Part shown: in pieces, positions 15,022-44,599 of the stretch
Position numbering within the stretch: the first letter of the stretch is position 1
How the letters are laid out: every line of letters starts with the position of its first letter
NCBI GenBank assembly: GCA_964016885.1
Contig: OZ024743.1
Span: forward strand, 361,522,001-361,586,000
DNA from: Eledone cirrhosa
Taxonomy: Eukaryota
Direction of reading: 5' to 3'
Length of the DNA: 64,000 nucleotides
Position numbers and translations under genes: made by a program
Notes under the pieces: model-generated
Database searches by the model: none
Seen by the model: only the letters and a program-made list of their open reading frames with translations
What the model was told of the DNA's origin: nothing

Positions 15022-15211
15022 AACGAAGGAAATGTGGTAAGGAACCAGGTGGACCATAACGCACCAAAGTACTCAATACTTGAGGTAGTAGAGTGGGTAA
15101 TAGGAACCAGTAAGACCCCGACAGCTGAGCTCAAGCCGTTTCGACGGCTTGGTCCAGAATTAGCCGTCGAAACGGCTTGAGCTCAGCTGTCGGGGTCTTA
15201 CTGGTTCCTAT
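15022..15211. mobile_element. Tailed mini-palindrome of the same PLE family as 32555-35797
   Basis: Tail 15022-15099, arms 15100-15149 and 15162-15211. Both termini match those of the 3.2 kb palindrome. Flanked by (TA)n. Confidence 0.9.
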
Positions 15212-15294
15212 ATATATATATATATATATATATATATATATATATATAATTATTTGCTTAAACTTTAATCTGTTATTTTAATATATATATATAT

Positions 15295-15411
15295 AGGCGT
15301 GTGGCTGAGTGGTTAGAGAATTGGATTCGCAATCGCAAGGTTGTGAGTTCGATTCCTGGACCAGGCGATGCGTTATGTCCTTGAGCAAGACACTTTATTT
15401 CACGTTGCTCC
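15295..15411 (+). mobile_element. Second tRNA-derived SINE family (CORE-like)
   Basis: A-box TGGCTGAGTGG, B-box GTTCGATTCC, then TGTCCTTGAGCAAGACACTT. Confidence 0.75.
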
Positions 15412-15597
15412 TTCTATCTGGAGTTGCGACCGATAGATAGTATTAGCAATTGGAAAGACCAACGGAAACATTGTTCCCTCGGTCCGATTTGACGAAAGTC
15501 GATCGTCCTTTAAAAAATAAAAAAAAAATATATATATATATATATATATATATATATAATATATATAATATATATATATAAGATATATGCAAGAAAT

Positions 15598-41351: not shown

Positions 41352-43856
41352 CAGCTATCTGAAAAGCGCGCCAAAGCCGGCTGCCAAATAAATTTCCTAA
41401 AACGATGCCTGAATAACAACATCATTCCCAAAACCATCAAAAATTTACACCTACCAACATGCTTCAAATCACCAGGCCTCAAGCGATCACTCAGTTACAT
41501 ACAAAAATTCTGCCTAAGAAAACTCATACAACACCTACACCGCACGCTACAACATCACATACGGACTATCTCCAGCCTTGTACCACAACTCGCTGAAACC
41601 CCAGAACCTCTGTCCAAGGTCATCTCCGCCACTATAGACAGGTCATACCACCACCGCCGAGACTACGAGAAAATACGCCTAAAACAAAAATTTCTCAAAC
41701 TCAGGACGGCCAACTGTCTTAACAACATCCCAACGCTAAACACCAACAGAGGCGAACAATACGTTACCAACACCGAACCTAGCGGCACCCCGACCAACAA
41801 CACACCTGACGCAAAACACCTCGTCACAGACTTGACAGGATCCCTCTCCCGAGAGGAATTAGACCTCCTCAGCCTGGGTCCCAAGTTCATATTGAAACAG
41901 AGACTGGACGACAGACTATGGCTCGACATAGAAACGAATTTCTGTCGGACTGCCTACCAACTGAAATGGATATCGACTCTCGACAACAACACCACGGAAT
42001 CCACCACACCCAGATTCCCGATATACCAACTAGATCGCCCACTCTATCCACCGCCCGCCAACCGCGAGCTGGAAGAAAAACTCTCGAGGCTAAAACATTC
42101 CGTATTTAACATCTTACGAAAACAGAAGAAGATGGCCCCTAACCTCTCCAGGACACAACAACTCGCCCTGAAGAACCTACGGAATAAAGAACTTATTTAC
42201 TTACCATCCGACAAAGGTAAAGAGTTCTGCGTCATCTCTCAAGCCACATACAATAACCTAGCCTTCGAACACCTAAGCGACAGTGAACTGTACACAGTGA
42301 TCCCGGACATGACCGCAGCCCAAATCGAAAAACAGACCAACTCCATTTGGTTCGATATCTGTAGGAGAAGACAACTCCCGAATAAAATTAAACTCAACTA
42401 CACCACTAGAAATAGCAGACTGCCCACTTTCTACCACCTCATCAAGACCCACAAGAATAGCACTAAGACGCATATAAGACCCATTGTCTCTAGCATAGAA
42501 GGACCCCTACACAAAATTTCCTGGCTTCTCTCCCAGGTCCTCAAGCCTCTACTCTCCACCTTCCCCGGACATGTCAGTAGCTCCGACGAAGTTATACGTA
42601 GATTACACCAACTCCAGCCAGAACAACTTAAACTTAATAAATACGCTTTTAGCCTCGACGTTGTCTCCCTCTACACTACAGTCCCCGCTCACCCAGCTGT
42701 CGATTTATTGACGGACTGCGTGGTCGCAGAGAACATCCACTGCTACGGCCTCCACCCGACGGACATACACCAACTTTTGTCCTTCACAGTCGACAACACG
42801 TACTTCACCTTCCACCACCACACATACAGACAGACAACAGGATTACCCATGGGATCCAGCCTCTCTGGCCTGCTGGCCATCACTTACATGAACCAACTAG
42901 AATGCCGAGCCCTCAACACCTGCCATTCCCATGCCTTCTTCACCCGATATGTAGATGACATACTCATCCTTACATCATCCCGTGAGGAGGCAGAGAAAAT
43001 ATACACAACATTCTCCAGCATGGACGCCAGTATAAAGTTCAGCATAGAACACCCCGATGACCGCGGATCCCTATCCCTGCTGGACTTCCAACTCAGGGTA
43101 ACAGAGGAAGGAAACATCCACACCTGCTTCTATAAAAAAGCCGCCAGCAGGGACCTGTTCGTACATTTCAGATCGGCCCTCCCACTCGGTGCCAAGTTCG
43201 GATACATAAAGAACGAACTGGCACGTATCAAGAACAAATGCACCGACGCCAGAGACCGAGACACACACACCACACATTTCCTGGAAGTACTCAAACTGAA
43301 CGGATACACGACATCCACCACAAACCGTGCCAGAAAGAACAGAGGACACCACACCCGAGGCACTAACACTTGCTTCCTGAAGCTCCCACACTTCAGTGAA
43401 GAAACAACAACAGCCATCCGCAGAGCCATCAGACGAGAAGGTCTGGATATTCAACTGGCCCATTCGGGTCCTTCTTTGCGTGGACGGCTAGCTAAGAGAC
43501 ACTCCACCAGACATGACAACTGCTGCAGACTAGCCAACTGCCCCATCAACGACACAGACCTATGCCACCAGGCTTACGTAGTTTACAGACTAGAGTGTGA
43601 CAAATGCAACAACTTCTACGTAGGTAGCACCACCAGACCACTCCACATAAGAATAAAAGAACACCTCAATACTAACGCTTCCTCATTTAAGAAACACCTA
43701 GTTAAATGCAAAAACACTGATAAAAACATAACAGTTAGGATAGAAACTAAGGAAAGAAACCTCGGCAATCTTAGAATCAAGGAAGCACTCATTATAGATA
43801 GAACACATCCACCAATCAATAATAGACTAGAGCTCAACACCCAATTTATAACCTGA
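41352..43856 (+). CDS. PLE reverse transcriptase plus GIY-YIG endonuclease; open frame extends upstream of the track ORF, start codon lost
   Basis: The frame is open from 41352 (QLSEKRAKAGCQINFLKRCLNNNIIPKTI...). Motifs: PSDKG, IRPIVS, SLDVVSLYT, GLPMGSSLS, RYVDD, VVY..C..C..YVGST.R....RIKEH. Confidence 0.92.
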   Translation, partial: QLSEKRAKAGCQINFLKRCLNNNIIPKTIKNLHLPTCFKSPGLKRSLSYIQKFCLRKLIQHLHRTLQHHIRTISSLVPQLAETPEPLSKVISATIDRSYHHRRDYEKIRLKQKFLKLRTANCLNNIPTLNTNRGEQYVTNTEPSGTPTNNTPDAKHLVTDLTGSLSREELDLLSLGPKFILKQRLDDRLWLDIETNFCRTAYQLKWISTLDNNTTESTTPRFPIYQLDRPLYPPPANRELEEKLSRLKHSVFNILRKQKKMAPNLSRTQQLALKNLRNKELIYLPSDKGKEFCVISQATYNNLAFEHLSDSELYTVIPDMTAAQIEKQTNSIWFDICRRRQLPNKIKLNYTTRNSRLPTFYHLIKTHKNSTKTHIRPIVSSIEGPLHKISWLLSQVLKPLLSTFPGHVSSSDEVIRRLHQLQPEQLKLNKYAFSLDVVSLYTTVPAHPAVDLLTDCVVAENIHCYGLHPTDIHQLLSFTVDNTYFTFHHHTYRQTTGLPMGSSLSGLLAITYMNQLECRALNTCHSHAFFTRYVDDILILTSSREEAEKIYTTFSSMDASIKFSIEHPDDRGSLSLLDFQLRVTEEGNIHTCFYKKAASRDLFVHFRSALPLGAKFGYIKNELARIKNKCTDARDRDTHTTHFLEVLKLNGYTTSTTNRARKNRGHHTRGTNTCFLKLPHFSEETTTAIRRAIRREGLDIQLAHSGPSLRGRLAKRHSTRHDNCCRLANCPINDTDLCHQAYVVYRLECDKCNNFYVGSTTRPLHIRIKEHLNTNASSFKKHLVKCKNTDKNITVRIETKERNLGNLRIKEALIIDRTHPPINNRLELNTQFIT

Positions 43857-44237
43857 TAGGGCCTCTAGCCCCACTTTACACACCCCACACACACGCACGC
43901 GCACACCTCCACTTATTCTCTCTCACACATACACACACAAAACCAGTTCTAACACCAGATAACACCTACCCCCCACTTTTACGATTAGACCTATCTTCCC
44001 ACACTCACACACACACACCCACATACCTACACCTTCATGCTTTCTCCCACACACATATACAGGCACGCATATAAAATTTTAAAAAACACAACAAAAACAT
44101 AAACAAACCCCTCTTAAAGGGAGACTACTCTTTACCCACCTAATTTTAATTCTTTGATATTAAAGTTAGAACTCTATACTATTTCCGGTCAGCATGGCTT
44201 CATTGGAAATTTAGACGCTGGTCTGAGACTTTTACTT

Positions 44238-44274
44238 CCCTCCGAAGAAGAGATATTATCTCGAAAATTAAGGA
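44238..44274 (+). ncRNA. Minimal hammerhead, U4C variant (mirror copy at about 39205-39241 on minus)
   Basis: CCT-CCGAAGA-A-GAGAT-ATT-ATCTC-GAA-AATT-A-AGG. Confidence 0.65.
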
Positions 44275-44599
44275 CATTTAAATAAATTCAAGGTGAAAGA
44301 CGAATTCTCATCAATATCTTTCACTATTGCATTCTTTTTTCTATGTCCATATCTGCATTGTCTTGGCCTTATTACACATATTCTAACGTTTATATATATA
44401 TATATATATATATACATATATATAAGCTGTAGCATAACGTTATTCATAGTAGAGGTGTATACGGTATAGTTTTGCGCTTATCGCATGTACGATCAGTATA
44501 TACACTAAACGTTTCTGTTTGGTAAACCTACTGGTATATTGTTATGCATTTATTTCATCTTTATATTTTGTCTGAGGAACTTTAATATGACTCACAAGT

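Follow-up and report, generated by a model that had tools for sequence, protein, structure and literature searches.

Palindromic Penelope-like insertions in Eledone cirrhosa pair one tailed arm with one tail-less arm, whichever of the two is longer

In nearly every palindromic insertion of Penelope-like elements (PLEs) scored in the Eledone cirrhosa genome (3.0 Gb), one arm ends at a tail and the other at a tail-less site. This regularity replaces an earlier proposal that tied the tail to the more 5'-truncated copy. Each palindrome is best read, with fair though not high confidence, as one PLE insertion in a TA repeat, in which both cut target strands likely prime at a pair of fixed internal sites, probably within a single RNA.

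Self-alignment of the window, i.e., the whole 64-kb stretch of DNA analyzed here, revealed four head-to-head palindromes, all bordered by (TA)n and identified by their sequence as PLE insertions of known kinds. They belong to three families: A (20112-32199), B (32556-35797 and 15023-15211) and C (39045-44394). The matching arms lie at 20112-25523 and 26618-32065 in family A (99.1% identity), at 32633-34151 and 34279-35797 in the long family B palindrome (100%), and at 39085-41351 and 42128-44394 in family C (100%). The spacer extends the left copy in family A, with a 134-nt tail at the right; in 32556-35797 it consists of 7 non-matching bases and 120 bases of the right copy, with a 77-nt tail at the left; in family C it extends the right copy, with a 40-nt tail at the left, and the two arms overlap by 5 nt at 41347-41351. 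In 15023-15211 the right copy is longer by 10 nt and the tail is at the left. A fifth palindrome, 63489-63945 (family D), is a near-tie whose arm ends lie at most 3 nt apart. The features of the window are as follows.

15023..15211: family B mini-palindrome, with the tail at 15023-15099, the tailed arm reaching unit 3405 and the tail-less arm at 15152-15211 from unit 3395
20112..26617, minus strand: family A tail-less long arm of a Hydra-type PLE, with an RT and GIY-YIG frame at 24249-26666 and the spacer at 25524-26617
26618..32065, plus strand: family A tailed arm, more 5'-truncated
31858..32011, plus strand: predicted family A hammerhead-like motif, CTGAAGA...GAAA with a long stem II
31861: stop point of family A mini arms, the A of TCATT, the first bases of the hammerhead-like motif at 31858..32011
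32066..32199, plus strand: family A tail, 134 nt, which in tandem copies continues into the next unit
32556..32632, minus strand: family B tail, 77 nt
32633..34151, minus strand: family B tailed arm, 5' end at unit 1936
34152..34158: inversion junction of the family B palindrome, 7 non-matching bases
34159..35797, plus strand: family B tail-less arm, unit 1816-3454, with the GIY-YIG end and the 3' region
35708..35740, plus strand: putative transcription start of family B, TATTTAAA 29 nt before TTAGTC, the A at 35737 being unit 3394
39045..39084, minus strand: family C tail, 40 nt
39085..41351, minus strand: family C tailed arm
41347..44394, plus strand: family C tail-less long arm, nearly full length, with RVT_1 and GIY-YIG
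44238..44273, plus strand: predicted minimal hammerhead-like core of family C, C[C/T]GAAGA, stem II and GAAA
63489..63945: family D (Hydra-type) mini-palindrome, tail at 63489-63627

The window holds several other repeats. A solo family B tail with a 10-12-nt internal deletion lies between TA repeats at 36383-36450, an older relative of family A (76%) with its tail end at the left occupies 19361-20035 in the same TA tract as the adjoining young insertion, and a decayed single-arm copy of family D is found at 15601-16849. Two further palindromes, 1602-1896 and 61380-61682, have an extension on one side and were left unscored for polarity. A 220-bp element with a predicted hammerhead-like core (CTGATGA...GAAA) is present in two inverted copies (91%), at 32316-32536 and 38675-38895, and a second pair of short repeats lies at 36483-36576 and 38519-38612. 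Two degraded L1/Tx1-like non-LTR copies in opposite orientations, with an RVT_1 match, span 48045-54476. A SINE-like repeat of ~190 bp, 78-95% identical between copies, is abundant (7797-8304, 11339, 14389-14746, 45252, 47713, 55859, 56412, 57420 and 59814).

A Pfam search of family C returned RVT_1 (E = 2.9e-16) and GIY-YIG (E = 3.3e-5), indicating an RT with a C-terminal GIY-YIG domain in a single frame; its DKG motif (PSDKGKE) and the CxxC inside GIY-YIG (VVYRLECDKCNNFYVG) are those of canonical CCHH-bearing PLEs. The family A frame and the family B fragment had no Pfam match, yet both families show YRDD and GIY-YIG-type motifs. Families A, B and D resemble the Hydra clade of C-terminal EN+ PLEs as characterized in the available text of PMC8557442: DKT stands in place of DKG (HSDKTGN in A and B, ADKTSN in D), the linker follows the CxCX5C pattern (CNCRNKANC and CNCPDRSIC in A and B, CNCHLPERC in D), no CxxC occurs between GIY and YIG, in keeping with an endonuclease without CCHH, and the target is (TA)n. 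They do not match that description throughout: the clade has RWK, found here in D, whereas A and B have RWR; its members are "generally <3 kb", whereas the units here measure 3.2-6.9 kb; and a hammerhead scan of families A and B gave a core-and-stem match in A but no canonical core in B. Rfam returned only microRNA-type matches, all sub-threshold, with no hammerhead among the 150 of 155 matches listed. As in other EN+ PLEs, tandem copies occur (a 3,531-bp family B array with an inverted copy, and tandems in A, C and D), and in all four families the tail continues into the next unit, i.e., it is the sequence after the upstream pseudo-LTR.

PLE tails and inverted copies as such are already published. 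In the accessible parts of Craig et al. 2021 (PMC8557442) and Arkhipova et al. 2013 (PMC3846280), EN+ PLE insertions carry an inverted 5'-truncated copy and an optional tail of 30-40 bp at either end, ascribed to endonuclease resolution or to self-priming, the latter proposed in PMC3846280. In E. cirrhosa, by contrast, the tail measures 40-139 nt across families and is confined to a single arm in nearly all pairs, and the two arms also co-vary in length and haplotype.

For scoring, an intact family B unit of 3,531 bp was taken from the tandem array; tailed arms end at 3531 of this unit and tail-less arms at 3452-3454. Exact-pattern counts gave 15,921 TA-anchored tail ends and 4,856 tail-less ends for family B, and 4,260 and 611 tail ends for families A and C. 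A census of long family B insertions used a marker lying upstream of unit 3385; its first 100 places comprise 56 loci, all of which were covered, and 41 scorable pairs resulted (15 loci were dropped: 13 single-arm, one complex and one with an N gap). The first 80 tail-anchored family B ends yielded 62 pairs (18 dropped), the first 53 family A ends 40 pairs (13 dropped, single) and the first 38 family C ends 25 pairs (13 dropped: 12 single, degraded or complex, and one duplicate). The family D sample, biased by its query to long tailed arms, served solely for counter-examples and for the count of arms with and without tail. Several long family A coordinates are approximate, lying in microsatellite-like sequence, with the direction of the difference clear.

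The initial annotation held that the tail-bearing copy is always the more 5'-truncated one. The spacer and tail sides that it gave for the four window cases were confirmed by self-alignment and arm placement, and the tail is on the more truncated arm in all four, a count within chance (two-sided p = 0.125). The generalization failed in the genome sample. Among 168 pooled palindromes of families A, B and C, the tailed arm was shorter in 73, longer in 72 and equal in 23, and long insertions split 34:35 (shorter:longer); polarity was rejected as a rule on this near 50:50 division, the outcome that the initial annotation had itself named as refuting it, and one that agrees with the tail at "either end" in the portion of PMC8557442 at hand. 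Had it held, it would have favored an ordered or hairpin route. The ratios were 26:24 with 12 equal for tail-anchored family B, 19:12 with 9 equal for family A and 13:10 with 2 equal for family C. When only differences above 12 nt were counted, the pooled ratio was 56:38 (p = 0.08), with 18:6 in family A alone (p = 0.02) and 14:2 in tail-anchored family B. A lean in the claimed direction remains only in mini-palindromes, where the tailed arm was shorter in 22 and longer in 3 clearly unequal pairs and 65 of 90 pairs were ties; without arms stopping inside the tail, it is 13:3. Because tail-less arms below about 14-18 nt score as absent, the mini lean is inflated.

These leans, together with the window cases, are what would speak for a true polarity rule whose exceptions arose by later deletion of a spacer or arm. 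We regard this as very improbable: young family B insertions, with arms ~99.7% like the unit, split 15 shorter and 26 longer in the long census, by differences that are often kilobases and with clean junctions, and family D supplied 12 counter-examples, three of them minis, from its sample selected for a full tailed arm.

The pairing of one tailed with one tail-less arm is far more regular. All 41 pairs of the family B long census show it, one of them with a 14-nt part-tail on the other arm. The first 80 tail-anchored family B ends comprise 62 such pairs, 16 singles, one complex locus and one both-tailed exception (L155), and among the first 30 tail-less family B ends, 28 have a fully tailed partner and none has a tail-less one. 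No both-tailed palindrome was found among 40 of family A and 25 of family C, two family A partner ends being unseen, and 18 of 18 family D palindromes have one arm of each kind. Tail-only singles are common (16/80 tail-anchored vs 1/30 tail-less-anchored family B ends, p = 0.04), hinting that the tail site may prime first.

Most insertions are minis; in family B the marker upstream of unit 3385 occurs at only 348 places, against 4,856 tail-less ends. Their arms stop in a narrow zone, at 3389-3401 in B, 6301-6305 in A (15 of 44 mini arms at 6302) and about 2852-2864 in D. The zone begins at the A of CATT or TTAGT, in family B 29 nt behind TATTTAAA, and this TATA/initiator-like setting suggests a transcription start, given the usual spacing of initiator and TATA. 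Hammerhead cleavage was rejected as the cause of the 5' stop: family B has no canonical core, and the family A stop lies before the motif. A read-end pile at L007:3795, considered as a start-site signal, was set aside as an AATT site in RAD libraries. The arm ends of family C minis (L057-L145) have their main cluster at 220-247 nt from the tail end, and four others lie at a distance of 158-168 nt, on or close to the predicted hammerhead cut site. Mini junctions vary from copy to copy, so minis form anew. At L281 (G000:C1:27008900-27010400), a tailed arm is followed by two 257-nt head-to-tail repeats that start at unit 3391 and extend 116 nt beyond the tail end, and which look like repeated template jumps on a short RNA from the putative start site; L202, L299 and L302 carry similar repeats.

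The two arms of a palindrome pass or stop at the putative start together in 38 of 41 family B census pairs and 39 of 40 family A pairs (2x2 Fisher tests: p = 5e-7 for B, 2e-10 for A and 0.002 for C). Mixed pairs, with one arm past the start and the other not, make up 4 of 11 long pairs in family C, and in family D the partner also passes the start for only 5 of 11 long tailed arms. Away from the start, 5 of 41 long family B pairs have arm ends no more than 12 nt apart, as against 0.27 expected on shuffling (0 of 20,000), the tailed arm being slightly longer in four of the five; arm lengths are otherwise uncorrelated (Spearman 0.06). Among the several recurrent source haplotypes, both arms of an insertion carry the same one: at recurrent alleles, arms were discordant in 8 of 1,196 comparisons vs 15% when shuffled. 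A common haplotype denotes a common source locus, not a common molecule, and conversion between arms could add to the sharing.

Microhomology at the inversion junctions, which the initial annotation had proposed mapping, is enriched: at least 3 nt in 15 of 30 insert-free junctions vs 4.9% by chance, with a further 10 junctions carrying inserts. Imperfect flanks show a diagnostic 12-15-nt target duplication in 6 of 13 cases, while 3 do not fit and 4 are uninformative. Target duplications, asymmetric ends specific to each family and the diverged arms of older palindromes (6 private differences in 634, 11 in 1,387) all contradict an origin of the palindromes as assembly or library fold-back artefacts, as do raw Illumina reads of three other runs, in which both family B ends run into (TA)n (about 2,000 and 6,000-7,900 reads each). 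Arm identities of up to 100% and the few strand-switch joints among those listed in short reads would fit such an artefact, to which we assign hardly any probability.

In the reading that we favor, a staggered target cut, proposed because of the 12-15-nt duplications, would leave two 3' overhangs. One would prime at the tail end and the other 40-139 nt further 5', at the tail-less site. The sequences that follow the two starts show weak similarity in B (p = 0.036) but not in A (p = 0.14) or C (p = 0.44). Both cDNAs would be antisense and overlapping, copied from one RNA segment by strand displacement, and each would stop at random or at the RNA 5' end. Their 3' ends may then join head to head via 1-6 nt of complementarity and fill each other in, so that either cDNA may be the longer. 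The lean left in minis would follow from the shorter distance that their tail-less cDNA has to cover before the RNA ends. With a single RNA, the one-of-each pairing of arms, their common stops and their shared haplotype would all be explained, at the cost of displacement synthesis.

The earlier suggestion of priming at two RNA positions is supported, with two fixed ends, one of each per insertion, that match the start sites in the accessible text of PMC11167929; its further option of two RNAs fits less well, the evidence leaning to one. Two RNAs from one source locus could nevertheless be held in one enzyme dimer, with one protomer always using the tail site and its partner the tail-less one. 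Such an arrangement accounts for the pairing, both polarities and the shared haplotype without strand displacement, suits the mixed long/short pairs of families C and D, and draws on the predicted dimer of the anole protein (PMC11167929, available part). It is rather unlikely, as it requires the two RNAs to share the repeat unit at which they are read as well as their end point, a demand sharpened by the concordance in B and A and by near-ties away from the start.

A single cDNA might instead snap back and be copied into a hairpin, in which the endonuclease then cuts a single strand, at the tail-less TA. This route, akin to the self-priming of PMC3846280, would produce arms without differences, junctions with microhomology and near-ties that have short loops, and the four of five long near-ties with a slightly longer tailed arm are as tail-primed fold-back predicts. 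Attached to the target, however, a snap-back yields only longer tailed arms, and 56 clear cases are shorter; fold-back cannot give the pairs without overlap, 5 in B and 6 in A, in which the tailed arm does not extend beyond the tail; and the tail-less end is already known as an RT start in vitro. The earlier argument that simple fold-back is insufficient is supported, since both polarities occur whereas fold-back fixes one. Its alternative of a hairpin cut at an internal TA fared poorly, predicting one polarity per cutting direction and leaving the common 5' stop of the arms unexplained. The data contradict snap-back as the only route; it could play no more than a minor part, and as an account of the palindromes it is improbable.

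L1 twin priming yields non-overlapping pieces, whereas among the 102 tail-anchored pairs of A and B just 11 lack overlap. As described in the accessible text of Kojima 2010 (PMC2912911), both target ends prime on one RNA and a microhomology join produces a 5' inversion with target duplication, all of which the preferred one-RNA reading shares; the second primer there lands at a variable internal site, whereas here the second site is fixed and the cDNAs overlap by up to kilobases. Closer still is the anole PLE PAc (Poseidon), a member of another clade studied in vitro by Frangieh et al. 2024 (PMC11167929). According to the part of that paper available, two internal RT starts bracket the tail, PAc cuts and extends both target strands, and the target is AT-rich, as in E. 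cirrhosa. The same part reports no start-site difference between strands, and strand identity does not explain the one-of-each coupling. It gives no account of inverted copies or of two starts paired within one insertion, and its supplement text mentions neither tail nor inverted nor strand. The literature searched, which lay outside subscription papers such as the 2005-2006 PLE reviews, held no paper on tail polarity or on this coupling.

We tentatively suggest, with reservations, that PLEs normally integrate by double priming. Both target strands would engage one RNA, each at one of its two fixed sites, and displacement would allow two copies of it to be made; what is called "second-strand synthesis" would consist of two antisense cDNAs that copy one another. 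The majority of insertions (about 97% in B) would begin in the 5' repeat of the transcript itself and end by run-off at the start site, producing thousands of 200-bp palindromes that map the promoter. These ~200-bp palindromes are non-replicating by-products with differing junctions, easily taken for MITEs or microRNA hairpins. In the text at hand, PMC8557442 names the formation of PLE tandem and inverted insertions as an open question, and PMC11167929 leaves the build-up of insertions to "additional steps yet to be validated". The one-of-each coupling and the shared 5' stops connect the two in vitro start sites with the two target strands of one event, and the regularity is a real, testable constraint on this open PLE mechanism.
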